A stretch of DNA of 64,000 nucleotides from Escherichia phage VEc74. Numbering within the stretch: position 1 is the first letter of the stretch; each line of letters starts with the position of its first letter. Shown piece after piece: positions 5,801-50,644 of this stretch. The stretch lies in sequence record MT932213.1. The stretch is one strand, 5' to 3'. Made by a program: the position numbers and the translations under genes. The notes beneath the pieces are model-generated. The model made no database searches, had not been told where the DNA came from, and saw only the letters and a list, made by a program, of their open reading frames with translations.

Positions 5801-6070
5801 TTAATTGAACAGTGGAGCGATGCGTTTCAGAAGAGTAGCAGTACCTTTGGCAAATTTTACATCATGAAAAACAGTTTCTTCTTCTGTAACAACACGAACT
5901 TTAATGTTTTCACAATCCCAATTTTTACGAACAATCTTCAAAAGCTCCAGTAAATCTTTACATTCAGCAATATCGATAACACATCCACGAGAATCTTCCA
6001 TTATCGCACGATAACCGTAAGCCATACCATAATCGTTGAAAGATTGCTCGATGATAATTAAGTTTTCCAT
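5801..6070 (-). CDS. hypothetical protein
   Basis: ORF starting MENLIII at the ATG; the tracked upstream extension uses a TTG. Confidence 0.45.
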   Translation of the reverse strand: MENLIIIEQSFNDYGMAYGYRAIMEDSRGCVIDIAECKDLLELLKIVRKNWDCENIKVRVVTEEETVFHDVKFAKGTATLLKRIAPLFN

Positions 6071-6091
6071 TTTATTCTCCAAGTTGTTTTC

Positions 6092-6140
6092 TGCATCAGT
6101 AGTTGATATTGATATAGTACCATAATCAACTACTGATGCA
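6092..6140. repeat. perfect 16-bp inverted repeat (stem-loop) with a 17-nt loop
   Basis: TGCATCAGTAGTTGAT ... ATCAACTACTGATGCA; the loop carries a promoter -10-like TGGTACTATA. Confidence 0.7.
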
Positions 6141-6168
6141 TATAGTTTTATGAAAAAAATTTTAAACT

Positions 6169-6657
6169 TTATGCATAGAGAGCATTGCTATAGTGTTTAA
6201 TCCAGCTTTCAGGAATGACTTTATATGTTCCTAAAAATACCACATTGTACAGCTTAACGCCATCTTCTACCCATTGATCAGTAATGTATCCACACATAGC
6301 GCGAGTATAAACAGCCTTTCCATCATCTTTGATAAATTTAAATTCACAAGGAGCAATGAACTTGATAGCTTGACCGAGTTTCCACTTAAAGTCTACACCT
6401 ACATGCGAAGTATCAATCGTTTCAATTCCTTTAGCAGGAACAGCTTTCAAAAACGCAGGCTCAAGAAATTTCCATCGAACATAACCAAACTGAGGTTTAG
6501 ACTTTCCATCTTTAGGAATGATACGCACTTTTACTTCAGAATCTTCATCTTTAACACCATGTTTAAGCTGAATGCTTACAATTTCAACCAATTTTCCTGC
6601 TGCCTTAGAACGGGATTTATCAGATACACGAGCAATTTCACCGATATTAATATTCAT
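6169..6657 (-). CDS. motB: MotB-like protein
   Basis: 162-aa ORF at the motB position (T4 MotB is 162 aa). Confidence 0.5.
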   Translation of the reverse strand: MNINIGEIARVSDKSRSKAAGKLVEIVSIQLKHGVKDEDSEVKVRIIPKDGKSKPQFGYVRWKFLEPAFLKAVPAKGIETIDTSHVGVDFKWKLGQAIKFIAPCEFKFIKDDGKAVYTRAMCGYITDQWVEDGVKLYNVVFLGTYKVIPESWIKHYSNALYA

Positions 6658-6733
6658 AATTATCTCTCACTTGTTAAAAAGATTTTATACTCCACAGGAC
6701 CATTATACTCTGGTCCCAAGAGTTTGTAAACTA

Positions 6734-7273
6734 TTAATTCAAAATAGCTACCACTGCACTACGAGGTACTACGCTAAAATCACCTGCATGAACAACGTTC
6801 AGAAGTTCAACACCATCTTCAATCCACTGGTCTGTTACCCAACCACAGACCGAAACAAATGGGGTCTTGATAGCTACAGCACGAGTTAGAAGGTCAGTAG
6901 GATCGCATTCTTGAAAGAGGATGAACTCTGCTTCAAAAACTATAGTTTTAATTACTTCATCATTATCTAAACGGTGTACTCGAATCACGTAAGCTTTATT
7001 CTTATCATACCAGTTACTTTTTGAAAAGCTTTTAATCACAAACTCGCCTTCACCAAAAACATTAGTCAATGCTTTATAACCCAAATTTAGTTCAGTAGTT
7101 TTAATTTCAGTTTCAACCAGTTTGTAGGTTTTGCCGATTTCAATAGCGGTAGTCATAGTAGGTTCCTTAATTTCCAGCGGTTTAACAGGGCATACATAAG
7201 TGCTTACAACATCAAAATCAATCAGCTTAGCTACCGGATTTGGTGTGTATTCAGGATTATAATTAAATTTCAT
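6734..7273 (-). CDS. MotB-related paralog
   Basis: 179-aa ORF whose C-terminus (GWVTDQWIEDGVELLNVV) parallels that of the adjacent MotB-like protein (GYITDQWVEDGVKLYNVV). Confidence 0.45.
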   Translation of the reverse strand: MKFNYNPEYTPNPVAKLIDFDVVSTYVCPVKPLEIKEPTMTTAIEIGKTYKLVETEIKTTELNLGYKALTNVFGEGEFVIKSFSKSNWYDKNKAYVIRVHRLDNDEVIKTIVFEAEFILFQECDPTDLLTRAVAIKTPFVSVCGWVTDQWIEDGVELLNVVHAGDFSVVPRSAVVAILN

Positions 7274-7275
7274 AA

Positions 7276-7776
7276 TTATCTCATTTCAATAAAATCTACG
7301 AGTTCAGCATGCGATTTGCGGAACATTACTTGGTGCCCACCAATGATAACTTCATCTTCAGGAACTTCATATATAGCAAGATAAAATCCTTTAGAAGCTA
7401 ATTCTTCACGCTCTTCTCGTGTGAACCATCTCATCATATCATATTCACTAGCGAAAGCAAAATGATAAAGAGCTATAAACCATCCTGGAATATGATATTC
7501 TACTCCAACATAATCTTTCTTGAACTTAGTATTAATTACTATATTAGCGTTTTTAACTAATAGTTTATCTTCGTGTGGTAAAGGAATTCTTTTATTATTA
7601 TCGCTATGATGCATAAAATTAGGTCTGTCATAACCTACGTGTAATAGCCACTCTTCGCTCCATGAATCTATTATACTCCTGTACGGCGTTATTTGAACAC
7701 AAAGATTTCGACGTATTGTTATAGCATCTTCATAATCAAGAATACTAAACGATGATTCAACACGATAAATTTTCAT
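7276..7776 (-). CDS. hypothetical protein
   Basis: 166-aa ORF downstream of an early promoter. Confidence 0.45.
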   Translation of the reverse strand: MKIYRVESSFSILDYEDAITIRRNLCVQITPYRSIIDSWSEEWLLHVGYDRPNFMHHSDNNKRIPLPHEDKLLVKNANIVINTKFKKDYVGVEYHIPGWFIALYHFAFASEYDMMRWFTREEREELASKGFYLAIYEVPEDEVIIGGHQVMFRKSHAELVDFIEMR

Positions 7777-7803
7777 TTTATTATCCTCAGTAGCTATGGT
7801 GTT

Positions 7804-7833
7804 ATAATACCATAACTAACCGAGGAAGTAAAC
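7804..7833 (-). promoter_or_regulatory. T4-type early promoter
   Basis: GTTTAC, 17 bp, TGGTATTAT on the minus strand. Confidence 0.5.
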
Positions 7834-7839
7834 AACTTT

Positions 7840-8523
7840 TTATCGTTTTGTTGGAAGAGACAGAGGATCGCAATCTTCCTCTGACGGAGCATCTTCAAGA
7901 CCCATAGCGTATCGCAAAGCATACTTCATCATCAGGATGTCTTTCGCACAGTCATGAATAGAATCATGCGCAACGAATCCATCTAAAGTTCCTTTTGGAA
8001 GAGGACACGTGGTCATATCACGAACAAGCAGAAGTGCTTCAATTCTGGTACGAATATCACGCTGATTCCAGAATTTACATGGTTCTAACTTAAATGTGTC
8101 AAGCTCATTCTCAGAAACACCATTAAAACGTTGAATATCACGAATAAGATCGACTAAAATTGGAAAATCAAACGACATTCCACGGCACCAGCCTTGAGAT
8201 TTCCAAGGATCGATATTATGTGCATTGATGTAATCATTAAATTTTGCAATACCGTCAATAGTGCTTACATCTTCATCTGATGGTGCAATATTTTTTCTAG
8301 CTTCAGGTGATTGATTTTTCCACCATTCAATAGTGCTTTTAGTAAAAAGACGATGTCCTTTTTGGCTTTTTAAATCAAATTTGATTTTAATGCCACGTGA
8401 AACTAATTCATCAAACGTTTCAACGACTTCTGGATTAGGGTCAAAAGCAATTACAGCCAAATCAATAACAGCTGCTTTTTCACCACTTCCCATTGTTTCA
8501 AAATCTATAATAAAATCAAACAT
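7840..8523 (-). CDS. dexA: exonuclease A (DnaQ-like 3'-5' exonuclease)
   Basis: 227-aa ORF with an N-terminal DxE exonuclease motif (FIIDFETMG). Confidence 0.8.
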   Translation of the reverse strand: MFDFIIDFETMGSGEKAAVIDLAVIAFDPNPEVVETFDELVSRGIKIKFDLKSQKGHRLFTKSTIEWWKNQSPEARKNIAPSDEDVSTIDGIAKFNDYINAHNIDPWKSQGWCRGMSFDFPILVDLIRDIQRFNGVSENELDTFKLEPCKFWNQRDIRTRIEALLLVRDMTTCPLPKGTLDGFVAHDSIHDCAKDILMMKYALRYAMGLEDAPSEEDCDPLSLPTKR

Positions 8524-8765
8524 TAAACTTTCCTCGCTAAATCGCGAATTTGGCCTACAGTATAGTCTTGAATATAAACTTTATTAATAGGTTCATCAAT
8601 AAATTTTGCCATAGATTCAATATCTTTTTGCATCTCTTCAAGACTGTATATTATCTTTAAAGCTTTTTCGCGAATAGTAATATTTTCAGGACCAGAATTT
8701 TTCTCAATGACAGCTTTAACATTTGTCATAAGAGATTTAAATTGGTACCAACTTAATTCAATCAT
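8523..8765 (-). CDS. hypothetical protein (dexA.1 position)
   Basis: 80-aa ORF. Confidence 0.4.
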   Translation of the reverse strand: MIELSWYQFKSLMTNVKAVIEKNSGPENITIREKALKIIYSLEEMQKDIESMAKFIDEPINKVYIQDYTVGQIRDLARKV

Positions 8766-9018
8766 TAATAATCGCCTTATAAAGATAGCTAATTTCGCCT
8801 AAAACATAATCATTGATTGTAACAGTTTTCACTTCACCGCAAAAGAATTCTAACGCAATTAAATCTCGTTCAATTTCTTCTAATTGAAGCATCAACTTAC
8901 TAGATTCAATTTTTACAGTTTCACGATTTTTGCTATAAGCTATTTCATAAATTTCGCTTACTTTATCTTGAAGAAGATAAAACTGATCTTTAGTTATTTC
9001 CACTAATAGCTTCCTCAA
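8758..9018 (-). CDS. hypothetical protein (dexA.2 position)
   Basis: 86-aa ORF. Confidence 0.4.
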   Translation of the reverse strand: MRKLLVEITKDQFYLLQDKVSEIYEIAYSKNRETVKIESSKLMLQLEEIERDLIALEFFCGEVKTVTINDYVLGEISYLYKAIIND

Positions 9019-9024
9019 ATTTAA

Positions 9025-10344: not shown

Positions 10345-10652
10345 CGGAAAGTCCCTGCAATTGGAATACTAACAATACGCCCAGTATCTAAAATTCGCTG
10401 ATATAATCTTTGTGTGTCTACGTCAGGCTTAACATGTTTAACTTCTATTTTATTAAACCAAAATTTACGTGGAGTCTCAACTAATCTTGGAATTCCCTTA
10501 CCTAAAGCTAGTTGATACTGCTCTTTAAGAGTGGTAAATACTTTATCAGCAATCTTCCATTCAAAAAATACAGCAGGGCGATGTTCATCAAGCGGAACTG
10601 GCGCCGTAAATCCGTCTTTGTCTCGGTAAACTATCGCATATACATAAACCAT
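10341..10652 (-). CDS. hypothetical protein (dda.1 position)
   Basis: 103-aa ORF. Confidence 0.45.
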   Translation of the reverse strand: MVYVYAIVYRDKDGFTAPVPLDEHRPAVFFEWKIADKVFTTLKEQYQLALGKGIPRLVETPRKFWFNKIEVKHVKPDVDTQRLYQRILDTGRIVSIPIAGTFR

Positions 10653-10653
10653 A

Positions 10654-17096: not shown

Positions 17097-17261
17097 TTAC
17101 TCTTCTTTTTCTTTAGATTCCTCTTTTTTCTTTTTAGGAATCTGTTCAGGACCTTTATTTACTACAGCGCCTGACGTTGTTCCGGTAGAGATATTTTCAG
17201 GATTACCACCTGAATCTCCAGCGACCATATCTTCTTTGATAAATTCTTTATATGTTTTCAT
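17097..17261 (-). CDS. small protein with a capsid-targeting-sequence-like N-terminus
   Basis: 54-aa ORF MKTYKEFIKE..., GAGG RBS, start abuts the stop of the upstream gene; hand-translated and below the ORF-track cutoff. Confidence 0.4.
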   Translation of the reverse strand: MKTYKEFIKEDMVAGDSGGNPENISTGTTSGAVVNKGPEQIPKKKKEESKEKEE

Positions 17262-18684: not shown

Positions 18685-18713
18685 AACAATCTCCTCATTT
18701 AACCAACAAGACT

Positions 18714-18743
18714 ACTATACCATAGTCTTGTCAGCTTGTAAAC
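18714..18743 (-). promoter_or_regulatory. T4-type early promoter
   Basis: GTTTAC, 17 bp, TGGTATAGT; the -35 overlaps the gene 41 stop codon. Confidence 0.5.
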
Positions 18744-20170
18744 TAAAATTTTAATTCATTTGCCAAAGCATCTAACTGAGCTCGAGCTGATTCGTTTCTT
18801 TGATAGCGATTCTGTTCAGCCTGAATCTGTTGTGAACCTGCTACTTCGTTCACTTCAGTTGGAGTAGAATCTTGTTCAATTTCTACCCATTTCTGATTTC
18901 CTTTTTGAACACCCATCAAAAACTTATTCCATTTATTCTTATCACCATATCGTGATTTGATTTGCTTAATGAGCTGTTGTTCAGCAGCTGCTAGCTCCTC
19001 GGTTTCAATGACCGCAAGCATAAAATCAGCTGTTGCTGGAAGACCAGCAGATTCTGCAATATCGCTCATGTTAACATCAGAAGAATCCCAAGCTTGTTTG
19101 CCGACCTGTGCTGCAGTCCAAAGAACAGTTTCGGTTTCAACAGCCAAAGCACGCAATTCCTCTGCAATAGCTTTAACAGTTGTGTAACTATTTTCTGAAT
19201 AAACTCTGATGCGGCAAGATTTACAAATACCTAGATAGTCGACAATAATGATTGTTGGAACAAAATTCTTTTTGAGCTTCAATTCGTTTAAAAGTGATCG
19301 AAATGTATTAGCATCTGCTCCGCCAGTAGGATACTGTTTAACGATTAAACGACCGAGAGTAGATTTCTCACGCCATTTTTCCATTTTTCCTTTATACTCA
19401 GCGTAAGAAATATGCCCATCATCAATGTCATCAAGAGAAACATCAAGCATATTAGCATCAATACGTTTAGCACAGACTTCTTCTGCCATTTCCATGGAAA
19501 TGTAAAGAACATTATGTCCGAGCTGCAAATAATCTGCTGCCAATGAACACAATCCTAATGACTTACCAACGTTAACGCCAGCCATTAAAACGTTCAGTGT
19601 TCCAGTCTCAGCTCCGCCTTTAGTAATTTTGTTTAGAATTCTGAGTTTAAATGGAACCTTACGAGCTTTATTCATATAAGATAGCCAACGTGCTTCGTAG
19701 TCATCCATCCAATCATGACCAACGTAGCTATCAAATGAAATAGATAATGCTTGGCGCATGATGTCAGGAATAGCACCAACGTCCGGCATTTTCTTATTTC
19801 GTTTTTCCGGAGGAAGCTCAGCATTAGTTTGAATTTCGATTATTTTAGACGTAGCATTAAACATCGCCCTTTGCTGAACATATTTTTCTGTTTCTTTTAT
19901 TAACCAACTGTGGTCTTCTGGAGAATCAGCTAGTTTTGAAATAAGTGTTTTTACACCAGAATATTCTGTTTCAGTAAATGAACTATTTTCTAATGCAACA
20001 TTTAACGCATTAATAGATGGAACGCTATGATACTCATTGACATGAGATTTAATTAATTTGAATGTATTTTTAGCTGGACCACTTTCAAAATATTCTGAAT
20101 CCATATATGGCCAAACTTTTGAAAAATAAGCTTGATCAAATATGAGATGAGAAAGAATAATTTCTACCAC
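18743..20170 (-). CDS. 41: replicative DNA helicase gp41 (DnaB-like)
   Basis: 475-aa ORF with Walker A GVNVGKS and DnaB-family motifs. Confidence 0.9.
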   Translation of the reverse strand: MVEIILSHLIFDQAYFSKVWPYMDSEYFESGPAKNTFKLIKSHVNEYHSVPSINALNVALENSSFTETEYSGVKTLISKLADSPEDHSWLIKETEKYVQQRAMFNATSKIIEIQTNAELPPEKRNKKMPDVGAIPDIMRQALSISFDSYVGHDWMDDYEARWLSYMNKARKVPFKLRILNKITKGGAETGTLNVLMAGVNVGKSLGLCSLAADYLQLGHNVLYISMEMAEEVCAKRIDANMLDVSLDDIDDGHISYAEYKGKMEKWREKSTLGRLIVKQYPTGGADANTFRSLLNELKLKKNFVPTIIIVDYLGICKSCRIRVYSENSYTTVKAIAEELRALAVETETVLWTAAQVGKQAWDSSDVNMSDIAESAGLPATADFMLAVIETEELAAAEQQLIKQIKSRYGDKNKWNKFLMGVQKGNQKWVEIEQDSTPTEVNEVAGSQQIQAEQNRYQRNESARAQLDALANELKF

Positions 20171-23362: not shown

Positions 23363-23512
23363 TCAATTGATACATTCATATTTAACTTGTAACAGTAATA
23401 AGCTCCAACCTAAAATAATAGTTGGAATCATAAGAGGAACCGTTACACTATAGTATATACTTATTATAATCATCAAGATTAAAAGCAACACTGCTATAAT
23501 TTTGCTTTTCAT
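23363..23512 (-). CDS. small membrane peptide
   Basis: 49-aa hydrophobic ORF with ATGA overlap to the imm stop; hand-translated. Confidence 0.35.
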   Translation of the reverse strand: MKSKIIAVLLLILMIIISIYYSVTVPLMIPTIILGWSLLLLQVKYECIN

Positions 23513-23767: not shown

Positions 23768-24148
23768 TCACTTAGTCAAATTTTTTACGCATGAATTATA
23801 AGAATTCACTACATACTCCATCGGAGCATTTTTACCAGTACGCCATTGGTAATTATTAGCCCAATTAGCCCAAATTTCGGCGCAGTAGTTTTCAATTTTT
23901 TCTTCGCGTGTAATTACATCCGAATTACGATATGCTTGAGCAGATTCATCTGGACGAATAGCTTCGTCAAAATTCGCCTGCATTTGTTCTACTGTTTGCT
24001 TTGGAGCTTCTTTATAACACTTGACATTAGGATTATAAAATTTGCTTGAACAGTTTACAATTTTTCCTACATCAGACTGATTTACTACCGGTCCTTGAGC
24101 TACACAACCAGTAAGACCTAATGCAATAACCAAAATAGCGATTTTCAT
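23768..24148 (-). CDS. predicted lipoprotein
   Basis: signal peptide with lipobox (LTGC); start taken at the ATG, the tracked start is a TTG. Confidence 0.5.
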   Translation of the reverse strand: MKIAILVIALGLTGCVAQGPVVNQSDVGKIVNCSSKFYNPNVKCYKEAPKQTVEQMQANFDEAIRPDESAQAYRNSDVITREEKIENYCAEIWANWANNYQWRTGKNAPMEYVVNSYNSCVKNLTK

Positions 24149-24182
24149 TTCATTCTCCAAATCCGTATCAGTTGATAGTTGT

Positions 24183-24212
24183 ATAGTACCATGGAAGAAC
24201 AGTCTTGTAAAC
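24183..24212 (-). promoter_or_regulatory. T4-type early promoter (part of a PeSL-like unit)
   Basis: GTTTAC, 17 bp, TGGTACTAT, plus an A/T-rich upstream element. Confidence 0.55.
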
Positions 24213-24295
24213 AGTTTTGTGAAAAATTTTTTAGGGAATTCTAAAGGTCCAGAATCATCTGTTTTTCATAAGTATAGATTTATATTACTTGTATG

Positions 24296-24320
24296 AAAAA
24301 GGGACCCGGAGGTCCCTAGA
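24296..24320 (-). terminator. rho-independent terminator after gene 43
   Basis: GGGACC-UCCG-GGUCCC hairpin followed by UUUUU. Confidence 0.6.
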
Positions 24321-24329: not shown

Positions 24330-27026
24330 TCAGCCAAACAGGAAGTCTAACGAAGCTTTTTCTTCATAGTCCATACCAGCCGATTCACACATGCCCGCAA
24401 GCGGTTTAACAAACGATTTTTGGAACAAAGTTGAGTAGTCAATCCAAGATAGTACATCAGAACGAATTTCTTTTGGAAGTTCTGTGCCCGACGGCCAAGC
24501 AATGCACTTGTCACCAAATGGATTTCCTTCACGTAATGGAAGAACCATTACTTTATTTCCATCCAAAATTGGAGCTACACCCAGACCGCTAACAGCTCGA
24601 CGATAAGTTAGCACACCACGAATATGGAACGGACATTTAAATCCTGGCCAACCTTTATCATCATATTTCGCTATATCGTTCGCAGTTTTTACTTCAGCAA
24701 TAACTTTATAGTCGAGTTGACGATATTCTTTCTCGAAGTTCTTGTAATATTCTTGGACAGACTCTTCACCTTCTTGAAGAATACGCCGAATACTTTCTTC
24801 GAGAGCTTCTTGCACTGCTTTTGGTGTTGAACTCTGTTGAGTTTCCATACCCATGATTTTTAGATGCGGTTCAGCAAATCGCTTATCTTCCATATCATAA
24901 ACGTTCAGAGCATAACGTTTTTTCGCTTTCCAAAATCCACCAACGCCCTTTGAACCAAGTGGAGGACAAGAAATAGCTTCACGGTCCATATGCATCAGAT
25001 GCTCGCGGTTATTCATATAATCACATAACTCGCGATATGCAACATCAATCATAGGTTCCATCTTTTTCTTACCGAACTGATTCATGAATTCAACCAAATC
25101 GTTCTGCTCTTTGAATCGGTCAAGACCAACTTTTTCAATAACTTTATCTACACAAACATATACCGAATCAGTATCACCTGCTGCGATGAAATCTTCACCA
25201 TTAGTTCCGCATACTTTATTCAGATATTCATTAATTTTACGAGCAATCCACTGAATACCAACTTGACCGAAAATTGTGATAGCAGTAGCATTTCGCAAAT
25301 CATAATAACGGAAATGAATATTACCAAGAGCACCATAAAGACTGTTAATAAGAATTTTACGGTTCAGCTGATTTGTATTAGCAAGTGTAGCTGCTTTTTC
25401 ACATTCCTCAATCAGACTATTGAGAACAGATTCAGTATAATTCGATAGTTCATTTAAGAAATCATCACTGAACTTAACATATCGTTCAACTTCTGGTTTA
25501 GTTGAACAGGACCCTGCGCCTTTCATAATAATCTTTTTAATAGCTTCGGCATTCATTTCTTCAGCGAACATTTTCTTTTTCCAATCTTTACGCTGGAAAA
25601 ATACTTTAGCGATTTCCTTTGGAATGATACCTTCTTGATGCTTATCATACATCCATCCATTCGGAGAACAAGAATATTCATCACTCGGTTTAGGAGCTGT
25701 TCCTGCGATATATTCATGAATTGGATGAACTTTAAACTGCCCACGAATAGTCTCAGGACTAATGTTAACCTGACGAATAATGCTCGGATACAGAGACGTC
25801 AAGTCAAAACTCATAATATATCGACGAGCAATTGGTTTAGGTTCAAATACAAATGCACCCGGAAAACTTTGTTTAACGTGCGAACCTTGCTGAGGAATAA
25901 CCTTATGTTCACCTTTCAATGAGTTAAAAATAATAGCATCCCAAGTTTTAATAGGACTCATTACACCAGAAAAAGGCATTTTAGCATAATAAGACATACT
26001 TAAAACTAGATCGATAAACCCACGAATTTTATCAATTGCTTGAACTGATTCTACGTCAATGATGTTATAACTAATGTATCGTTGATGATTAGTCTCACGA
26101 AGTTTATTAATAGGACCGTCGTATGGTAATTTACCCTTTTTGGTTTCATGTTGAGCAACTGATTCCAAAGAGAATGACGGCAAATTAGTAAAAGCGAATT
26201 TCTTGTACAAATCTAAATAATCAAGAATAGATACGCCATCAATAGAATAAATTTCTTTGCTACCGTACATATTTTGAATTAGTTTAGATTTTACCCGACC
26301 GATTGGAGAGAAGCGTTTCATACTACGTTCACCGAGAACCATTTTAACGCGATTCATGATATACGGAACGTCAAATCCCTCAATATTCCAACCAGTAAAA
26401 ATAGCAGGTCGTTTCTGTTCCCAGAGATTGATATATTCCATGAGCATATCACGCTCATTATCGAATGGCATATAAATTACTCGGTCAAGAATTTCTTGAG
26501 GAACTTCATCACCACCTTCACAGTCAAGCTTAGCAGCTAACTTTGCATCCCATTTTGATACTGAACCATACATTGAATTCAAAAGGTCGAAAACATAAAA
26601 ACGATCATCAATTGAATCATAATGAGTGATAGCATCAATTTCATATTCAGCTTTCATTGGGTCAGGAAATTTATCACCAGTAACCTCAATGTCACAATTA
26701 GCTACACGAACAAATTTTCGGTCATAAACAATTTCTGAACCGTATGTATCACTGATATAAGCGAGTTTAAAATCGTTCATACCGAGAGCTTCGAGACCGA
26801 TGTCTTCCATTCGTTTCATCCAATCTCGAGCATCTTTCATTGATGGAAATTTTTGAGGAGCACAGTTTTTACCATAGATGTCTTTATATTTTGACTCTTC
26901 CTTACAATGCCTAAACATAGTTGGAAGATATTCTACTTCACGAGTACGTTCCTTTCCGTTTTCATCAATATAACGTTCAACAATGTTATTTCCGACTGTT
27001 TCGATAGAGATATAAAATTCTTTCAT
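24330..27026 (-). CDS. 43: DNA polymerase gp43 (family B)
   Basis: 898-aa ORF with exonuclease and polymerase motifs; identical length to T4 gp43. Confidence 0.95.
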   Translation of the reverse strand: MKEFYISIETVGNNIVERYIDENGKERTREVEYLPTMFRHCKEESKYKDIYGKNCAPQKFPSMKDARDWMKRMEDIGLEALGMNDFKLAYISDTYGSEIVYDRKFVRVANCDIEVTGDKFPDPMKAEYEIDAITHYDSIDDRFYVFDLLNSMYGSVSKWDAKLAAKLDCEGGDEVPQEILDRVIYMPFDNERDMLMEYINLWEQKRPAIFTGWNIEGFDVPYIMNRVKMVLGERSMKRFSPIGRVKSKLIQNMYGSKEIYSIDGVSILDYLDLYKKFAFTNLPSFSLESVAQHETKKGKLPYDGPINKLRETNHQRYISYNIIDVESVQAIDKIRGFIDLVLSMSYYAKMPFSGVMSPIKTWDAIIFNSLKGEHKVIPQQGSHVKQSFPGAFVFEPKPIARRYIMSFDLTSLYPSIIRQVNISPETIRGQFKVHPIHEYIAGTAPKPSDEYSCSPNGWMYDKHQEGIIPKEIAKVFFQRKDWKKKMFAEEMNAEAIKKIIMKGAGSCSTKPEVERYVKFSDDFLNELSNYTESVLNSLIEECEKAATLANTNQLNRKILINSLYGALGNIHFRYYDLRNATAITIFGQVGIQWIARKINEYLNKVCGTNGEDFIAAGDTDSVYVCVDKVIEKVGLDRFKEQNDLVEFMNQFGKKKMEPMIDVAYRELCDYMNNREHLMHMDREAISCPPLGSKGVGGFWKAKKRYALNVYDMEDKRFAEPHLKIMGMETQQSSTPKAVQEALEESIRRILQEGEESVQEYYKNFEKEYRQLDYKVIAEVKTANDIAKYDDKGWPGFKCPFHIRGVLTYRRAVSGLGVAPILDGNKVMVLPLREGNPFGDKCIAWPSGTELPKEIRSDVLSWIDYSTLFQKSFVKPLAGMCESAGMDYEEKASLDFLFG

Positions 27027-27084
27027 AGATATTCCTTAGTTTATAGCCCGAGTTATTAGGCTCTTGATATATTATACTCCAATT

Positions 27085-27102
27085 AAGGGGCCGAAGCCCC
27101 TT
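27085..27102 (-). terminator. GC hairpin (GGGGC-UUCG-GCCCC) between regA and gene 43
   Basis: inverted repeat directly 3' of the regA stop; weak U-tract. Confidence 0.45.
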
Positions 27103-27104
27103 GC

Positions 27105-27473
27105 TTAATTACCAATCGTATATTTAGGAACGAGTTTCCATTCATGTTTTTGTTTAAAAGAAATAACTCGGAAGTTATTAGTTAAATCTTTCATAAAAGT
27201 TCTTTGACCAGGAACGATTTCAATCAGTCCCCAATCTTCTAATAGCCATGCAATCGAATCACGACGAACTTCATCTTCTTCTGTCATTTCAACTTGGCGA
27301 CCATCCATACGAAGCATTTCTTTAAAATGAACGATATAGTATAGTCCTTTTTTCTGAAGAATATGACAGGACTGATACAGAACTTTATCTTTATTATTAG
27401 CAATTCCCATACGAGTCAAAGTTTCTTTTACTTTCAGAAAATCTTCAGGTTTTTTAAGAGTAATTTCAATCAT
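27105..27473 (-). CDS. regA: translational repressor RegA
   Basis: 122-aa ORF between gene 62 and gene 43. Confidence 0.8.
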   Translation of the reverse strand: MIEITLKKPEDFLKVKETLTRMGIANNKDKVLYQSCHILQKKGLYYIVHFKEMLRMDGRQVEMTEEDEVRRDSIAWLLEDWGLIEIVPGQRTFMKDLTNNFRVISFKQKHEWKLVPKYTIGN

Positions 27474-29030: not shown

Positions 29031-29050
29031 TAAAGGGCCGAAGCCCTCTA
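29031..29050 (-). terminator. GC hairpin (GGGC-UUCG-GCCC) after gene 45
   Basis: inverted repeat followed by UUUAUAAUUU. Confidence 0.45.
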
Positions 29051-29737
29051 TTAAAAATCGTGGGTAGAATCAGCTTCAAGAGCTACTACATAATTCGCAT
29101 GTTCACCTTCAAATTTAGCAGCACCTTGTTTACCTTTTGCCCAGAGCAGAAGTTTATAATTTCCTGGTTGCATTTTCATATTTGCCATATTGATAATGAA
29201 ATTAAATGTATTTTCACCATCATAATCACCAAGAGTCAAAGAATATTTAACACGAGTCAAAGCAGAATCTTCTACTTTATTAAAACCGTTAATTACGATT
29301 TTACCTTCTTTTACTGTGATAGCAATTGTATCAATCTGCAGACCACGAGATACACGCAACAGCTGTTGAAGGTCTTCAGCTTTAATTTCAGTAACAACAG
29401 ATGCTACCGGGAATGGAATTGGTTTATTAGGAGCAACTACTGTACTCGGATCGGCTGCTGGCCAAAAAATTGTTGAGCGGGCATCAGCAATTTTAATATT
29501 TCCATCTTCTGACTGGGAAATTTCTGCATCATCATTAACTAGAGACAGAATACCGAGAAAACCGTTCAAATCGTAAATTGCTACATCAAAATCAATAACG
29601 TCAGAAATATTTGCTTCCGCATAAGTTGTACCATTAACTGCACGAGTCATAATAAATTGACCAGATTTAAGCATAATACCGGAGTTAATAGTAGCGAAAT
29701 TTTTAAGCAGAGCAGTAGTATCTTTAGACAGTTTCAT
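29051..29737 (-). CDS. 45: sliding clamp gp45
   Basis: 228-aa ORF; length and position match T4 gp45. Confidence 0.85.
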   Translation of the reverse strand: MKLSKDTTALLKNFATINSGIMLKSGQFIMTRAVNGTTYAEANISDVIDFDVAIYDLNGFLGILSLVNDDAEISQSEDGNIKIADARSTIFWPAADPSTVVAPNKPIPFPVASVVTEIKAEDLQQLLRVSRGLQIDTIAITVKEGKIVINGFNKVEDSALTRVKYSLTLGDYDGENTFNFIINMANMKMQPGNYKLLLWAKGKQGAAKFEGEHANYVVALEADSTHDF

Positions 29738-33718: not shown

Positions 33719-33741
33719 TATATCAAACTCCGTATAAAGCT

Positions 33742-33759
33742 AAAGGGCCGAAGCCCTTT
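33742..33759 (-). terminator. GC hairpin (GGGC-UUCG-GCCC) overlapping the alpha-gt stop
   Basis: inverted repeat followed by UUUAGCUUUAUA. Confidence 0.45.
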
Positions 33760-34960
33760 ATTTTGTAATAATGTCAAACTGCTCTTTAAAGCAGAAGCTT
33801 GAATCTTGATGCTGATACAAAAATTCATAAGCTTTTTCGCGTTCACGGTCATAAAGAGCTCGGTCAGATGACAGTTCTTTAATACGTTCAAATGTTGATT
33901 CCATGTCATTTTCATCAAACCAAACGATACCGCTATCGTGCGAAATTAATGGAGTATTATCAACACGGAATTTTAAATTTTCGCCAGTAGATTTCCAAAA
34001 TACTGGAATTGTTCCACATGCACCAAGCTCGAGATGAGTATATTCTAAAGAACGCTGTAGATATTTTTTATCTAATTTACTCAGCTGATAACCAAATCCG
34101 GATTTACTCATGCGTTCAAGCATTTCGCTATTTACATAACGGTCGAGAATTTGCGTCGGCAAATTAGGAGCAATTTTAATTTGGTCTACTTGATGAAGAC
34201 GATAATACTCGTATGGAATTCCTTTTTCTTTAATAGGAATGAACGCTGGAGAACGTTCCAGACCTTCCATAATAGTACTTAGTCCTGCAGGTTTAAGATG
34301 TTTTTCGTGAAAATCAAACATCTGATAAAAGCCTTTCCATGTAGTAGTACGACCAATCCAACGATTGATATTCATGTTAATTTCAGAAACATCTTTCCAG
34401 TAGGTTGATCGAACCTTCGCAATATCCATGGGAGGCTGAAAGTTATATACGGTCGGTGCTTCTTCAATATCATCAAATAGAGAAACAGTTTCCGGATACC
34501 ATTCTTTCATCAGAACTTTATTAAAATCACCATTATCAGAATGGCTAAAAATAACATCAGCCCGACGAACAGTTTCTTCTAATCCCAAATTTCGACGCAA
34601 AGAAAGAGAAGAATGGTCATGCTGATAAACTACAACACGAACCGAAGGTTTAATGTTATCAATAATTTTTTTATAGTTATTAATGGTGTCTTCTTCAACT
34701 GAAGTAGCAGGAACTGAATTGATAACTAGAATATCACAATCATTTACCAGCTTAAGCGTTTTATCGTATTCTTTTGCCAATAAAACCGGAATTGAAAATG
34801 ATTTATAATCATGCGCGCAATTACGAGTAAATGATTTATCTTTAGCATAAACCAAAGTTACTTCATGACCATTTTTAATAAACCAATCACGCTGCTCAAG
34901 AGAAAATTTAGTTACACCGCAACCTTCAAGACCTCGAGCCATAAAAATGCATACTTTCAT
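33758..34960 (-). CDS. agt: DNA alpha-glucosyltransferase
   Basis: 400-aa ORF; length and position (between 47 and 55) match T4 alpha-gt. Confidence 0.8.
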   Translation of the reverse strand: MKVCIFMARGLEGCGVTKFSLEQRDWFIKNGHEVTLVYAKDKSFTRNCAHDYKSFSIPVLLAKEYDKTLKLVNDCDILVINSVPATSVEEDTINNYKKIIDNIKPSVRVVVYQHDHSSLSLRRNLGLEETVRRADVIFSHSDNGDFNKVLMKEWYPETVSLFDDIEEAPTVYNFQPPMDIAKVRSTYWKDVSEINMNINRWIGRTTTWKGFYQMFDFHEKHLKPAGLSTIMEGLERSPAFIPIKEKGIPYEYYRLHQVDQIKIAPNLPTQILDRYVNSEMLERMSKSGFGYQLSKLDKKYLQRSLEYTHLELGACGTIPVFWKSTGENLKFRVDNTPLISHDSGIVWFDENDMESTFERIKELSSDRALYDREREKAYEFLYQHQDSSFCFKEQFDIITK

Positions 34961-37380: not shown

Positions 37381-37400
37381 AAAAAGGGCCGAAGCCCTTA
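37381..37400 (-). terminator. GC hairpin (GGGC-UUCG-GCCC) followed by UUUUU
   Basis: inverted repeat overlapping the 37398 stop codon. Confidence 0.55.
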
Positions 37401-37598
37401 GCTAAACTGTTTGGCGCCCTTCCAGCCTTCGTACATCATTGCGGCTGATATTAATATTGCTCCTGCGCATTTTGAATATTTGTGATTCCAAAACCAGTTC
37501 AGAAAAACTTCGTCATCAATACCTTGTGCTATCATATTTTCAAAGAACTGACGACGAGCTTCAGCAATTCGCTGCGATAATTTAGATTCAGGATTCAT
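37398..37598 (-). CDS. hypothetical protein
   Basis: 66-aa ORF. Confidence 0.4.
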   Translation of the reverse strand: MNPESKLSQRIAEARRQFFENMIAQGIDDEVFLNWFWNHKYSKCAGAILISAAMMYEGWKGAKQFS

Positions 37599-38200: not shown

Positions 38201-38230
38201 ATCAATTCCTCAAAGGTAATTCATATGTTA

Positions 38231-38260
38231 ATAATACCACGGTTTGAACTTGTTGTAAAC
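38231..38260 (-). promoter_or_regulatory. T4-type early promoter (part of a PeSL-like unit)
   Basis: GTTTAC, 17 bp, TGGTATTAT with an A/T-rich upstream element. Confidence 0.55.
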
Positions 38261-38340
38261 AACTTTGTGAAAAATATTTTAGGGAATGATAAGAAAGGAA
38301 CGATAGCTTAGAATGGTAATATACAGAATGTGAGAAAGAA

Positions 38341-41583: not shown

Positions 41584-42053
41584 TTTAAACTCTTTCTAAG
41601 CTGCTTCTTAAATGAAGCTATTAACTGTGTTTTGGTGTCAGATTCATTATATTCAAATCCTCTTTGAAGCATCTCGGCCATCATTTCCTCTTTTCCTAAA
41701 CGAGAAAATTCCTTTGATTTATCTCCAACAAAGTTAGGGTGAATATTATTTTGGGTGTAATCGGATTTTAAATAAGTAAGTAAATTTTCTAACCATTCAA
41801 GATAATCAACACCTTGTCCCTTTAAGCCAGAACGATTAAATTTATGCTTCATTTGACCTTCTGCGGCATTGCAGAGATTACAAAGCAATCCACGCACCTT
41901 TCCTGCTTTTGGTCCATTTAATTCATGGTCATGGTCAAGATGATTAGCTTGAACATCAGGATTTAGTTCTCGTTGGCAAATTAAGCATTTACCGTTTTGT
42001 GCATCATAAAATTTCTGTTTTTCTTCTTTATATAATTTGCCAGTCAATAACAT
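41580..42053 (-). CDS. 49: endonuclease VII gp49 (Holliday junction resolvase)
   Basis: 157-aa ORF with an N-terminal CxxC zinc site and HNH-like core (DHDHE). Confidence 0.85.
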   Translation of the reverse strand: MLLTGKLYKEEKQKFYDAQNGKCLICQRELNPDVQANHLDHDHELNGPKAGKVRGLLCNLCNAAEGQMKHKFNRSGLKGQGVDYLEWLENLLTYLKSDYTQNNIHPNFVGDKSKEFSRLGKEEMMAEMLQRGFEYNESDTKTQLIASFKKQLRKSLK

Positions 42054-46209: not shown

Positions 46210-46237
46210 AATAATCTCCTCAGTAGAAAGTAAGAAC

Positions 46238-46267
46238 ATTATACCACATCCTTGTGGCAAAGTAAAC
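46238..46267 (-). promoter_or_regulatory. T4-type early promoter
   Basis: GTTTAC, 17 bp, TGGTATAAT; near-identical to the promoter at 2418-2447. Confidence 0.6.
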
Positions 46268-47286
46268 TAGTTCAGTGCATTTAGTGCATTGTTCAGTTTA
46301 GAACGTTGCTTTGTCAGATTTTGAACCCTTGACTGAGCTTGTTCTAACGCCTTTTCAGCTTCTAACACTTCATTGGTCGCTTTAACGAGTTCATCATCTA
46401 CTGCCTTAAGGGACTTCTCAATCGCATCCGCGTGCCATTTTTCAACAGGTTTAAGACTCGGATTTTCAATAGGAAGAAAATTCACTTTATTGAATTTCCA
46501 TGCATCTTTATTACCTGAACTATACATCCAAAATTTAGGATCATTTGACGAGTAATTAGATAAATTTAAGTTATCTTGCACTTCCTGCTTTTTCTCTTGC
46601 GGGACTTCGTCCTTTCTCAAAAAATCGTATTTAAATGAAACGATCATATCAAGTTCATATGATGTTGTATCTAACTTAAATCGTTCAAAACGAGGTAAAA
46701 TCTTAGATTGAACAGCAGCAACAACATCCATATACTTAAATGCTTCTGTCAACTGTGATTTAAGGCATTCACAAATTGAAAGAGAATTTTTTGTATTAGG
46801 TTTAAAGCTAATTCGTGCAGTTCTATTATTTTCTTTTAACGGTCTTACTTCCATCTGAAGAGTATAACCATCAAATTTCAGATTCTTTAAGTTAATATCA
46901 GAGCCTTTTAATCGACTAGCAGTAGACAAAATTTGCTTTAATTGTCTACGGAACAGAGCAATAAATCTCCATTCAATACGATAATGATTTGGATTGAAAA
47001 ATCCAGATGATAAATCGACCTTACTTTGACCAACGCCTTGAACAAATAGAGGATTTTTATAATCAATAGTTTTACAGAAATCGGTGAGCTGCTCACGAGC
47101 AGTCATTTGTGTAATATACCCCGCTTTATTAAAATGACGTAACCATTCACTGCTATTCATATATTTAAAGTGAATATCACGATTAACTTTATCAGGGTCT
47201 AAATTATTTTGGCACAAAAATGTCATAACATCACGAGTATAGCTGGCATTACGAACCATATCTTCAATTTGAGAACGAGTTTTCAT
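46267..47286 (-). CDS. hypothetical protein, paralog family member C
   Basis: 339-aa ORF. Confidence 0.55.
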   Translation of the reverse strand: MKTRSQIEDMVRNASYTRDVMTFLCQNNLDPDKVNRDIHFKYMNSSEWLRHFNKAGYITQMTAREQLTDFCKTIDYKNPLFVQGVGQSKVDLSSGFFNPNHYRIEWRFIALFRRQLKQILSTASRLKGSDINLKNLKFDGYTLQMEVRPLKENNRTARISFKPNTKNSLSICECLKSQLTEAFKYMDVVAAVQSKILPRFERFKLDTTSYELDMIVSFKYDFLRKDEVPQEKKQEVQDNLNLSNYSSNDPKFWMYSSGNKDAWKFNKVNFLPIENPSLKPVEKWHADAIEKSLKAVDDELVKATNEVLEAEKALEQAQSRVQNLTKQRSKLNNALNALN

Positions 47287-47294
47287 GGTGTTCC

Positions 47295-48209
47295 TTAAGA
47301 TTTAAGTAAATCAACAATTTTAATTAACTTTTCACGCTCAGATTTAGCTTTACTACTCAATCCGGATAGTCTGAAAATTTCATCGTCATATTGTTGAATA
47401 GAAATATTCAGCTCTTCAATTTGCTTATTAAAATAATCAATTTGTTCAGAATGTTTTTCGTTACTACGAACTGGTACAGGTTTTGTAGGCAATTTAGTTA
47501 AACTGGATTCATCCGGGCGATAAATTAAAATGCAATTTGAACCAATAGGGCATTTTGCACCAGATGAATATTCTAATGTTCCGGCTTCTTTTAAAACTTC
47601 AAAAGCTAAACAGAGATGATGCCCCATATTGACATAATCTGTAGAGTGAGCGCTGACGTAATAATCATCTCCACGAGTACTAAATTTAAAGCATTTAAGG
47701 TCTTCTGTATTATTAGTTTTAAAAATCATTTGTTTATCTAGACCTTTAGCCAATCGAGCGCCTAATGCTAATAATCGTCGTTGATTTTCCCACAAATCCG
47801 CAATCATTTGGTCGAATGATAATTTCGGCATTAGTCGACCATAAAGGTCGTATCCTTTATTATAATTGCGAAGGATTTCACTCGCATTAATACGAGACAA
47901 TGCTCCAATTTTATTAAGGGCTTTCATAATGCGATTAGATAAACTCATTCCAGACCCGTTTGTTCGCTGTAAATGTTTTTCTAATCCAAATCCAATATCA
48001 ACTTTAAATTTATCTAAAATTTCAGCATGAACATCTCTGTCAATAACATTCAAATCCAAAGTTGGGTTAAATCTATGAAAAAATTTATCTGGCTCTCCAC
48101 GACGAAATACAGTCCATTCATTCATCATTTTTTTATTAACTAAAGATTTAATTACTGCATTGACATTATTAATTACTACTGACATATTTTCCTCACTCAA
48201 TTTTACCAA
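47295..48209 (-). CDS. hypothetical protein, paralog family member D
   Basis: 304-aa ORF. Confidence 0.55.
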   Translation of the reverse strand: MVKLSEENMSVVINNVNAVIKSLVNKKMMNEWTVFRRGEPDKFFHRFNPTLDLNVIDRDVHAEILDKFKVDIGFGLEKHLQRTNGSGMSLSNRIMKALNKIGALSRINASEILRNYNKGYDLYGRLMPKLSFDQMIADLWENQRRLLALGARLAKGLDKQMIFKTNNTEDLKCFKFSTRGDDYYVSAHSTDYVNMGHHLCLAFEVLKEAGTLEYSSGAKCPIGSNCILIYRPDESSLTKLPTKPVPVRSNEKHSEQIDYFNKQIEELNISIQQYDDEIFRLSGLSSKAKSEREKLIKIVDLLKS

Positions 48210-48594
48210 TTACGCGGAATAAGATTGAACAGACTATATAAGTACCACATATAGATTGAACTAATGCCATTCCAAAGAACCAAACAATATTATCAAACCA
48301 TGTCTGTTTTACGTCGAAAGGACGTAAACTTACAGTAATATTATCACCTTTTTCTATTGATGAATACATCTCTGGGGAAATATATTCGCTAAATCTATAA
48401 CCGTCTTTGAGTTCATATACAGCAATAAACGATAAACTAGACCCCTTTCCTTGAGTTCCTGTAAGGGTATTAACTACAGTAACATCATAATCTTTATAAT
48501 GCATATAATCATTAATAGCATAATAACCATATGCAACTACTACACATAAACAGCATATCAATAAATTCAATCTTTTAATTATCAACTGTTTCAT
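48193..48594 (-). CDS. membrane protein
   Basis: 133-aa ORF with N- and C-terminal hydrophobic segments. Confidence 0.5.
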   Translation of the reverse strand: MKQLIIKRLNLLICCLCVVVAYGYYAINDYMHYKDYDVTVVNTLTGTQGKGSSLSFIAVYELKDGYRFSEYISPEMYSSIEKGDNITVSLRPFDVKQTWFDNIVWFFGMALVQSICGTYIVCSILFRVIGKIE

Positions 48595-48623
48595 AATAAT
48601 CTCAATTAAAAGGGCTTAGAACC

Positions 48624-48648
48624 ATTATACCATCCTTAGTATAAAGCG
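48624..48648 (-). promoter_or_regulatory. middle-promoter candidate (CGCTTTA box, TGGTATAAT)
   Basis: box, 12-bp spacer, and extended -10 upstream of the 48594 start. Confidence 0.3.
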
Positions 48649-48649
48649 G

Positions 48650-49177
48650 TTATGCGAGTACCGTCTTTAACCGTTCTTCAAACTTCCGAAGAGTATTCTG
48701 GCGTTCAGCTCTTTGCTTTTTGTAAGTTTCGATACGCTCTGAAATGAGAGTGTATCGTTCATTTACTGATTCTTTCATAAAATCAGGAATTTCACGAGAA
48801 GCTTTAATCTCGTCAAATTTATCAATAACAGCTTGCTCTTCAGCAATTAAGTTATCATACATCAAAATATCTTTCTTGATGAACTCAATATCTTCTTGAG
48901 TTACACGAGATAATTTAGATGCTTTATCCTTTTTGTACTGTTCGTTAGTATCACGAGACCAGTGTAATGTACGATTTTTATTCGTATTTTTGTAAATTTC
49001 TACAATACCAATCTCATCAATAATAACGATCCAATTCCAACGTGATTTGTAAATTTGTCCTCCATCAACAGTGATTTCACCTCCGATTGAGATGTCATTA
49101 AAGAACTTGCTTTGTGCTTCAGATTTAAATTTACCATCGTTGTAATTTACCAGGTTGAAAATATCTTTAGCGTTCAT
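48650..49177 (-). CDS. hypothetical protein
   Basis: 175-aa ORF. Confidence 0.5.
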   Translation of the reverse strand: MNAKDIFNLVNYNDGKFKSEAQSKFFNDISIGGEITVDGGQIYKSRWNWIVIIDEIGIVEIYKNTNKNRTLHWSRDTNEQYKKDKASKLSRVTQEDIEFIKKDILMYDNLIAEEQAVIDKFDEIKASREIPDFMKESVNERYTLISERIETYKKQRAERQNTLRKFEERLKTVLA

Positions 49178-49205
49178 TTTGTGTTCCTCCGTAGTTGATA
49201 GTTGT

Positions 49206-49235
49206 ATAGTACCACAGAGGAACAGTCTTGTAAAC
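49206..49235 (-). promoter_or_regulatory. T4-type early promoter
   Basis: GTTTAC, 17 bp, TGGTACTAT. Confidence 0.55.
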
Positions 49236-49237
49236 CA

Positions 49238-49552
49238 CTAAAAGAAACTTCTTTCACAATTTTTTCCACTGAACCACGCGCTCACTGCTTTCTTAGTCTC
49301 AGGAGCAGTGTTATCCATAAACCATTCAAAGGCAGCCTTTTTATGATTCTGGAGGGCTTCTCGGGCTTTAATCTGTTCACGGTCTATTAACACTAACATA
49401 TGAGCCTTTCTTGTCACCATGGGCTTCTTATGATTTTTTGAATATTCCCAATCATTTGTCCATCGCATCGTTGTTGCGAATTGAAGTACAGCTTCTTTAA
49501 TCTTAGTTTCGTAAATTTCACGAGCCTTTGAGTATAACATCACTACCTCCAT
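49238..49552 (-). CDS. hypothetical protein
   Basis: 104-aa ORF. Confidence 0.45.
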   Translation of the reverse strand: MEVVMLYSKAREIYETKIKEAVLQFATTMRWTNDWEYSKNHKKPMVTRKAHMLVLIDREQIKAREALQNHKKAAFEWFMDNTAPETKKAVSAWFSGKNCERSFF

Positions 49553-49641
49553 TTACCAGTTTAATTCTAGTCATCTTTTTAATGGCAGTCCATATAATCT
49601 ATTTCTGAACTGCCTTTTTGTCTTAGAAGGCCTCTTATGAA

Positions 49642-50610
49642 TTATTTCAGAAGAGTAACCTCAGCAATTTCTTCCCAACCGTTTTTGTCGGTCATAATAA
49701 AGTCAGCAAGATAAAGAGCAGTACGCAGTGAAACATTGCGTAAACGGTTAACATTGACTTTCATCCATGATAATGCTTTATAAGTTTCTTCATCAGAAAG
49801 ACCGCGCTTTTGCATCATGTCGGTTGAAAGAATAACATCTTCAACCCTGACCATAATTTCTTCATTAGTGTGAACACCCAAATCCAAATAAACTGAGCGG
49901 GACACTAATGCTTGTAAATGTGGAGCAAGTTTAGTACCACGGTCTAATTCGCGGTCAATATCAACGTTTGTGATAAAAACAATCGTTCCTTTAAATTCAA
50001 ACTCACGGTCAATGCCTTTTTCTTCTAAGTAAGAAGATGCAGTGCTCCAGCAGACTTTACGGGTCTCTCCAGTGTCCAGAGCAGCTTTCAGAAGATTAAG
50101 AATGTCCATATCAGAGAAAACATCCACATCATCAATCAAAAGGACAGAATTCTCTTCACGATTATTCCAAAGCTGCTCATAAAGACCGATACCCGAGATT
50201 TTACCATTGATGCTTTTATATTCAATGTATCCAATATCATTTGCTTTATTCAAAGCTTTATCTAAAGAATACGTTTTACCAATACCTGCTGCTCCCGAGA
50301 TAATTAATGAACGAATGTTTCCGTTAATAATACCATTCGTCATCATTCCCATAACATTAAATCTTTTATTAATGCGGGTTTTCATATCTTCATATGATTC
50401 TTTAACTTCTTCAACTTTTACACCATCATATGAAATGTCTGATTTGTAAACCCAAACACCGCGACGTTTACCATCAATTTCAACAAAAACTTTACCATCT
50501 CCTTGTGCATCTACCGGAGCATTATCTGGGAACCATTCGCCTAAGAGCTCAAAAGTTCCAGAGATTTCTTTACCGAAGTAGATACCCTTATTGATAGTTA
50601 CAGTTTTCAT
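49642..50610 (-). CDS. AAA+/P-loop ATPase
   Basis: Walker A GAAGIGKT and Walker B VLLIDDVD; start at the ATG (MKTVTI), the tracked start is a TTG. Confidence 0.6.
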   Translation of the reverse strand: MKTVTINKGIYFGKEISGTFELLGEWFPDNAPVDAQGDGKVFVEIDGKRRGVWVYKSDISYDGVKVEEVKESYEDMKTRINKRFNVMGMMTNGIINGNIRSLIISGAAGIGKTYSLDKALNKANDIGYIEYKSINGKISGIGLYEQLWNNREENSVLLIDDVDVFSDMDILNLLKAALDTGETRKVCWSTASSYLEEKGIDREFEFKGTIVFITNVDIDRELDRGTKLAPHLQALVSRSVYLDLGVHTNEEIMVRVEDVILSTDMMQKRGLSDEETYKALSWMKVNVNRLRNVSLRTALYLADFIMTDKNGWEEIAEVTLLK

Positions 50611-50644
50611 TTTATTCTCCAAATCTGTATCAGTTGATAGTTGT

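Follow-up and report, generated by a model that had tools for sequence, protein, structure and literature searches.

How do unrelated early genes of a T4-like bacteriophage come to share the same 5' sequence? The question arises in a stretch of 64,000 nucleotides (nt) from Escherichia phage VEc74 (MT932213.1), called here the window, where the minus strand reads nearly alike upstream of an open reading frame (ORF) of 89 amino acids (aa) at about 6070, of the lipoprotein gene imm.1 at about 24148 and of the AAA-like gene nrdC.10 at about 50610. An earlier note on this DNA had described the likeness and had read it as the transfer of a promoter-leader cassette between unrelated genes, possibly including the first codons. 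We found the sequence to read as described at all three sites. The repeats very probably represent one sub-family of the T4-type early-gene cassettes known as promoter-early stem-loop (PeSL) elements.

Four copies of a promoter-leader repeat

By megablast the window is a Tequatrovirus genome (T4/T2-like) that spans rIIA to about ipIII/e; identity to T2 is 98% and to Yersinia phage PST 97.8% over 49-52 kb, and to phages ECO4 and CM8 it is 96% over 1-25 kb. Gene order is collinear with T4 from rIIA on and the early genes lie on the minus strand, as do roughly 17 T4-type early promoters returned by an early-promoter pattern scan. Using the 21-mer TGGTACTATAYMAYTATCAAC and allowing up to three mismatches, we obtained four occurrences in the window, all on the minus strand, at 6102-6122 (one mismatch), 24171-24191, 49194-49214 and 50633-50653. 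The expected number was 0.01, and none of 100 shuffled sequences reached four. A second shared element, TTGGAGAATRAAATG, is exact at 6068-6082, 24146-24160 and 50608-50622. The repeat finder placed 6103-6175, 24172-24244, 38220-38292, 49195-49267 and 50634-50706 in one family (D1), and in a separate family (D14) it aligned the imm.1 and nrdC.10 cassettes with 96% identity over 51 nt (24142-24192 versus 50604-50654). The claim that three genes share a leader thus held insofar as the repeat is real at all three, but it overlooked the fourth copy, upstream of nrdC.8, and the copy at 6070 proved divergent.

The genes behind the four copies are unrelated, as had been supposed. The 89-aa ORF (5801-6070, minus strand) lies between motB and cef and belongs to PHROG 3720, a family of unknown function; imm.1 (23768-24148, minus strand), directly 3' of gene 43, codes for a predicted lipoprotein of 126 aa with a DUF5481 domain; and nrdC.10 (49642-50610, minus strand) codes for a 322-aa P-loop/AAA-like protein (PHROG 1250), the starts of the latter two being taken at the ATG. 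These three proteins have no relation to each other. The ORF behind the fourth copy, nrdC.8 (48650-49177, minus strand; 175 aa), belongs to PHROG 2274.

A likeness limited to the promoter hexamers would have spoken against a copied unit. An alignment of the upstream regions gave a different picture, with identity running through the leader and the ribosome-binding site (RBS): imm.1 and nrdC.10 are nearly identical from the -10 onward, at 95% over the 45 nt that begin there, whereas among the other pairs of early promoters in the window identity is 22-60%, typically 35-45%. These two cassettes share a further 28 identical nt of UP tract and -35, so that the differing part is an 11-nt stretch of the spacer only. 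The repeated unit comprises promoter, leader, Shine-Dalgarno sequence and a few nt past the ATG, in agreement with the earlier note.

Anatomy of the cassettes

The imm.1 and nrdC.10 cassettes are built in the same order. The intrinsic terminator of the upstream gene is followed by AAAAATTTTTCACAAAACT, GTTTACA, the variable 11-nt stretch of the spacer and aTGgTACTAT; after the -10 come ACAACTATCAACTGATAC(A/G)GATTT and then GGAGAAT(A/G)AAATGAAAA. The nrdC.10 cassette is complete (50604-50723, minus strand): the terminator hairpin of nrdC.11 (50704-50723) and an A/T-rich UP tract precede the -35 GTTTACA (50668-50674), a 17-nt spacer and TGgTACTAT (50645-50653), and these are followed by the transcribed leader (50621-50644), GGAGAATAAAA (50610-50620) and the ATG (50608-50610). 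At imm.1 (24142-24317, minus strand) the gene 43 terminator (24300-24317) and the UP tract stand before the -35 TTTACA (24206-24211), TGgTACTAT (24183-24191), the leader, GGAGAATGAAA (24148-24158) and the ATG (24146-24148). The nrdC.8 cassette (49175-49235, minus strand), whose promoter overlaps the 3' end of nrdC.9, has GTTTACA as its -35, an imm.1-like spacer, TGgTACTATACAACTATCAAC and a short leader, ACGGAGGAACACAAAATG. After the -10, the first 15 nt of the transcript are kept; a short, different Shine-Dalgarno region follows.

A promoter search matched TTTACA-17-TACTAT, with the TG present, at imm.1, nrdC.10 and nrdC.8, and the TGn-extended -10, TGgTACTAT, is found in all four copies. The UP tract AAAAATTTTTCACAAAAC lies 5' of the -35 at imm.1 and nrdC.10; a similar tract is present at the 6070 copy, and at nrdC.8 it is weak. 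The divergent cassette of the 89-aa ORF (6068-6175, minus strand) consists of this UP-like tract, TGgTACTAT (6114-6122), a longer leader, the exact GGAGAATAAAA at 6070-6080 and the ATG at 6068-6070. It has no GTTTAC -35, and the search for paired -35 and -10 elements gave no match at this locus; three differences follow directly after the -10 and the leader is 12 nt longer, with GGAGAATAAAATG kept.

Two other early promoters in the window share single modules with these cassettes. The one at the position of T4 gene 55.6 (38220-38292, minus strand) has only the UP/-35 module TTCCCTAAAA..TTTTTCACAAAgtTGTTTACA in common with the imm.1 cassette, and the one at the position of T4 mobD.5 (54199-54269, minus strand) shares TGGTACTATACAAC and is divergent afterwards. 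The T4 RefSeq and GenBank records contain no annotated promoter features at the loci considered here, and a literature search on T4 start-site mapping by RNA sequencing gave nothing relevant. Mobile elements with terminal repeats were also considered as a source of the copies and rejected, as no such repeats flank them.

Separately, a hairpin GGGCC-GAAG-GCCC with conserved flanks, TAAAGGGCCGAAGCCCTTTAT, occurs in five plus-strand copies (4316-4337, 27084-27105, 29031-29052, 33741-33762 and 37382-37403); these look like a recurring intergenic terminator or stability hairpin.

Block-wise mosaicism and the case for copying

The distribution of the repeat among relatives bears on whether the copies descend from one another. 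In T4 the same 21-mer stands 5' of imm.1, nrdC.8, nrdC.10, e.8, motA and ndd.6, with a divergent copy upstream of cef. Among the IMG/VR relatives at least three more small ORFs follow it, for at least nine different downstream ORFs in all. A 90-nt query had six to eight matching places per Tequatrovirus genome in 550 phage records.

Different portions of the cassette are shared by different pairs of genes. The spacer of imm.1 is common to nrdC.8 and T4 ndd.4, and its leader is common to nrdC.10. In turn, nrdC.10 shares the UP tract, -35, spacer and -10 (58 nt, 96.6% identity) with the T4 frd.3 promoter, and does not share the leader with it. The 89-aa ORF and T4 e.8 have the long leader and ATGGAnAAy in common, and imm.1 and the copy upstream of T4 ndd.6 have ATGAAAATCGCT in common, with identity continuing into the first codons. 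Since this mosaicism proceeds in blocks and reaches into coding sequence, it argues for recombination among cassette copies. The shared spacers, transcribed sequence and first codons are, on comparison of the sequences, the mark of common descent combined with block-wise mosaicism.

The copy upstream of T4 ndd.6 (41994-42019) is followed by a mini-ORF of eight codons, MKIAEIEL, of which the first four are those of imm.1; in T4 its TGA overlaps the ndd.6 ATG, and relatives have an 87-aa ORF (MKFKFYY...) at this place. A separate pair of promoters in the window, 2418-2449 and 46238-46269, has 97% identity across 32 nt, a stretch that takes in the entire spacer (GTTTACTTTrCCACAAGGATGTGGTATAAT). 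One of them lies 5' of rIIA.1 and the other about 44 kb away, as a further promoter sub-family copied as a block.

Could each gene instead have arrived at an optimal promoter, start region and RBS sensitive to the endoribonuclease RegB and ribosomal protein S1 on its own, with no copying at all? Functional consensus is documented for each of the UP tract, -35, TGn, -10 and GGAGRAYARAA, near-consensus RegB sites occur at other early genes of the window (regB, motB.2 and 53401), and TATCAAC, at the predicted transcription start, is found again in three RB69 promoters whose flanks differ, all of which would be expected from convergence. However, functional consensus explains the UP tract, the -35, the -10 and GGAGAAUAAAA and fails to explain the leader: about 24 nt for which there is no known consensus are identical in imm.1 and nrdC.10, in a region where other early promoters are at 35-45%, and we therefore favour copying. 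Convergence also sits poorly with the whole spacers, which are not constrained in sequence, that other promoter pairs have in common, with an identity that reaches unrelated coding sequence (ATGAAAATCGCT), and with an indel in T2 that is bounded by cassette repeats (see below). We consider pure convergence very unlikely. The proposal of cassette transfer between unrelated genes is supported both by the block-wise mosaicism and by indels bounded by cassette repeats.

The shared ribosome-binding site and the position of the start codon

Efficient cleavage by RegB in T4 requires GGAGAAUAAAA, with the consensus GGAGRAYARAA in single-stranded RNA (PMC1702504), and the consensus usually lies within the Shine-Dalgarno region of early mRNAs (PMC1702504, PMC3014915). 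The window contains regB itself (57759-58220, minus strand; PF10715, E = 1.4e-68). The exact 11-mer occurs at two places only, 6070-6080 at the 89-aa ORF and 50610-50620 at nrdC.10; the imm.1 site, GGAGAATGAAA at 24148-24158, has one mismatch to the RegB/S1 consensus. Near matches are GGAGAATAACATG at regB, GGATAATAAAATG at motB.2 and GGAGAAGAGAATG at 53401, and several early genes with near-consensus RegB sites have the identical 6-nt spacing to the ATG. In T4, nrdC.8 is moderately cleaved by RegB (PMC1702504). The likeness to a RegB/S1 target is therefore close, with the 11-mer GGAGAAUAAAA exact in the initiation regions of two of the three genes, a one-mismatch form in the third, a single-stranded RNA context and regB in the same genome. 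What had been described as a shared RBS with shared first codons is accounted for by this match, because the 11-mer is the published optimal RegB/S1 site and regB lies in the window. The shared RBS is thus a known RNA recognition element and a strong ribosome-binding site as well, at which cleavage in VEc74 is predicted.

The earlier note had further suggested that all three proteins carry a translated prefix, TTG-E-N-(K/E)-M. Such a reading exists in frame, because the same 12 nt, TTGGAGAATAAA, stand before each ATG. There is no intervening stop, and TTG is a permitted bacterial start codon, so that the block might in principle be a real N-terminal extension that adds M-E-N-K/E-M to all three proteins. 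The evidence is strongly against it. GGAG stands 6 nt 5' of the ATG, whereas the TTG has no Shine-Dalgarno-like sequence on its 5' side; T4 RefSeq begins nrdC.10 and imm.1 at the ATG; and PHROG profiles 1250, 1754 and 3720 open at the ATG-encoded methionine. Family members at motA and nrdC.8 carry ACG in place of TTG, and upstream of the motA ATG the same frame holds a TAG stop. Starting at the ATG gives imm.1 a canonical lipoprotein signal peptide, MKIAILVIALGLTGC; an acidic MENE prefix would ruin the positive charge of its n-region. Finally, these 12 nt have been published as the sequence that RegB/S1 recognises (PMC1702504). A TTG start can be all but dismissed, and the TTG is most simply the 5' flank of the GGAG Shine-Dalgarno sequence, which makes the prefix a predicted non-coding segment. 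For annotation, ORFs should not be extended to the TTG of uuGGAG.

A palindrome at the 6070 copy and a possible regulatory role

The divergent copy at 6070 contains an inverted repeat (6092-6140) with arms at 6092-6114 and 6118-6140, TGCATCAGTAGTTGAT and ATCAACTACTGATGCA, that form 16 perfect pairs. It brackets and overlaps the -10; its left arm is an inverted copy of leader sequence and stands where the -35 would be. As RNA the palindrome folds with -34.3 kcal/mol (z = -7.3). Its 13-bp core is unchanged in T4 and five homologous IMG/VR loci, and two A-to-G changes, one in each arm (ATACA to ATGCA), make the stem longer in VEc74 alone. The promoters at 18706-18743 and 53412-53449 have similar palindromes around their -10.

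The leaders of the cassettes show no such structure. They fold no better than shuffled sequences (z +0.2 to +0.7), GGAG is unpaired in the minimum-energy structures, and no Rfam family matched anywhere in the window; a structured RNA leader or riboswitch was rejected on these grounds.

These features raise the question of whether the transcribed block ACAACTATCAAC[TAC]TGATACRGA, together with the 6070 palindrome, constitutes a site dedicated to regulation by a phage factor, either an operator or an RNA element. Such a role would be compatible with the cassette explanation, for instance as part of early-promoter shut-off, a process whose mechanism is unexplained according to reviews (PMC2988021). 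The block lies 5' of at least seven T4 transcription units, among them that of the regulator motA, the start-site heptamer TATCAAC is retained in RB69, and at 6070 the leader is duplicated in inverted form across the -10 with a core that is unchanged in all relatives examined. On the other side, apart from the unstructured leaders and the empty Rfam search, the block is absent from most early promoters of the window and a stem-loop over the -10 is an ordinary PeSL feature. In the comparison with RB69 orthologues only TATCAAC was retained, the rest of the block being specific to the T4 group; as the block is lost in RB69 outside this heptamer, lineage-specific copying fits better than deep constraint. 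We regard a dedicated regulatory site as unlikely, and slightly more so the specific idea that ACAACTATCAAC(TAC)TGATACRGA is a binding site for a phage factor in early-promoter shut-off, as opposed to a mere footprint of copying.

Gain, loss and relocation of genes at cassettes

If cassettes recombine, closely related genomes may differ in the genes that lie between them. T2 contains an extra gene between nrdC.11 and nrdC.10, T2_097, which is found neither in the window nor in T4. It codes for a protein of 161 aa annotated as an RNA polymerase ADP-ribosylase (T2 NC_054931, 1790-2570; about 50700 in the window). Direct repeats consisting of a terminator and TTTTATTTCAAAAATTTTTCACAAA..GTTTAC flank it on both sides, precisely at the nrdC.10 cassette. 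In the window, nrdC.10 and nrdC.9 stand between two direct cassette copies (50634 and 49195) that are 1,439 bp apart and have 42 nt in common. The 89-aa ORF between motB and cef is intact in VEc74 and one IMG/VR relative. In T4 (NC_000866, 6483-6652) and four other relatives it is internally deleted; the promoter, leader and ATG are kept, and a short out-of-frame remnant (4-12 codons) and the last 17 codons are left.

A cassette may also move with its gene. In RB69 the imm.1-imm pair is located between sp and 61.4 (19011-19723) and not between genes 43 and 42. RB69 imm.1 has retained a related early promoter and leader, TACTATctttcTATCAACTACagAGGAAATTGAAATGAAAA, so that the pair moved together with the cassette. 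In the same neighbourhood of the window, a hydrophobic ORF of 49 aa (23363-23512, minus strand) lies between imm and gene 42; the T4 record has no gene annotated at its counterpart, 26220-26372, and RB69 has an annotated ORF described as 'similar to T4 42-imm intercistronic region'.

A repeated block of 5' coding sequence was observed elsewhere in the window, at 60852-60906, 61525-61579, 61859-61913 and 17231-17261. Its minus-strand sequence, ATGAAAACnTATmAAGAATTTAT, encodes MKTY(K/Q)EFI and is present in several small genes and in one more near 17.2 kb; the internal proteins of the ipII/ipIII region carry a conserved N-terminal sequence for capsid targeting, and the block probably corresponds to it.

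Discussion

PeSL elements were described as composites of an A/T-rich tract, a sigma70-like promoter, a stem-loop, a Shine-Dalgarno sequence and a start codon; they are numerous in hyperplastic regions, before ORFans, and inverse PCR revealed mini-circles formed by recombination between them (Arbiol et al. 2010, PMC2839356). That account already includes stem-loops that lie over the -10 box (PMC2839356); PST and T4 were later brought under the same concept, their consensus being TTTACW-N17-TAYWAT (Comeau et al. 2014, PMC4122927). The VEc74 repeats resemble PeSLs in being composites of an A/T-rich region, a sigma70-like promoter, a Shine-Dalgarno sequence and a start codon, in a TTTACA-17-TACTAT arrangement that fits the consensus, in their many copies per genome, mostly before small accessory ORFs, in the indels between close relatives that copies bound (T2 versus the window at nrdC.10) and in the palindrome that lies across the -10 in the 6070 cassette. 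They differ in that the position of the stem-loop is variable, with none at nrdC.8, and in the unusually long identical leader of this sub-family.

T4 early promoters are known as UP/-35/TGn/-10 promoters with further consensus regions (Hinton 2010, PMC2988021). The VEc74 cassettes have the same GTTTAC -35, TGn-extended -10 and A/T-rich UP tract, the same location 5' of early genes, including motA, and a consensus beyond the sigma70 elements; unlike the T4 promoters, they have TACTAT and not TATAAT as the -10, and their conserved sequence runs about 40 nt further 3' into the leader. T4 early promoters are reportedly also the subject of Liebig and Ruger in 1989 and of Miller et al. in 2003. A third parallel is the internal-protein locus of the T-even phages, for which conserved flanking motifs have been described (Repoila et al. 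1994, as cited in PMC4122927). As far as that secondary account goes, the locus likewise has short conserved regulatory or 5' sequences beside interchangeable small genes; its conserved block is a coding, N-terminal targeting sequence, whereas the VEc74 cassette block appears to be non-coding.

We propose that, right after infection, host RNA polymerase with sigma70 would bind the A/T-rich UP tract, the GTTTACA -35, the TGn and the TACTAT -10. Homology to the T4 motA early promoter is what suggests that the unmodified host enzyme would use these promoters immediately. Transcription would probably start at the A of TATCAAC and yield an unstructured leader of 25-40 nt, from which ribosomes would initiate at the ATG, 6 nt 3' of GGAG. 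Minutes later RegB and S1 may cut GG^AG inside GGAGAAUAAAA, which would inactivate the mRNA and aid the shut-off of early protein synthesis. The likeness of the unrelated genes would then reflect in part functional constraint on these signals and in part copies reshuffled in blocks by homologous recombination between cassettes, and the same recombination may insert, delete and relocate small accessory genes between them.

Several observations weigh against this proposal. The 6070 promoter may be weak, extended-10-only or inactive, because there is no -35 match there. A terminator stem-loop abuts the promoter directly at the nrdC.10 copy only; at imm.1 some 65-70 nt separate the terminator from the UP tract 3' of it, and there is no terminator at nrdC.8. 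Some of the differences between copies could stem from recurrent slippage (ACTACT to ACT), without gene conversion: an ACT indel and an A/G polymorphism vary across loci and genomes in the IMG/VR relatives, with differences too few to separate slippage from gene conversion. Moreover, the transcription starts, RegB cuts and N-termini given here for VEc74 are predictions drawn from the T4 literature and the sequence.

The idea of such a cassette is already known, the PeSL (PMC2839356, PMC4122927), the T4 early promoter consensus and the RegB/S1 site all having been published. What VEc74 and its relatives add is a clear case of mosaicism in which promoter, spacer, leader and RBS modules assort as blocks. 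The nrdC.11/nrdC.10 junction, which differs between T2 and VEc74, and the motB-cef ORF, deleted in T4, offer natural examples for PeSL-mediated gain and loss of genes.

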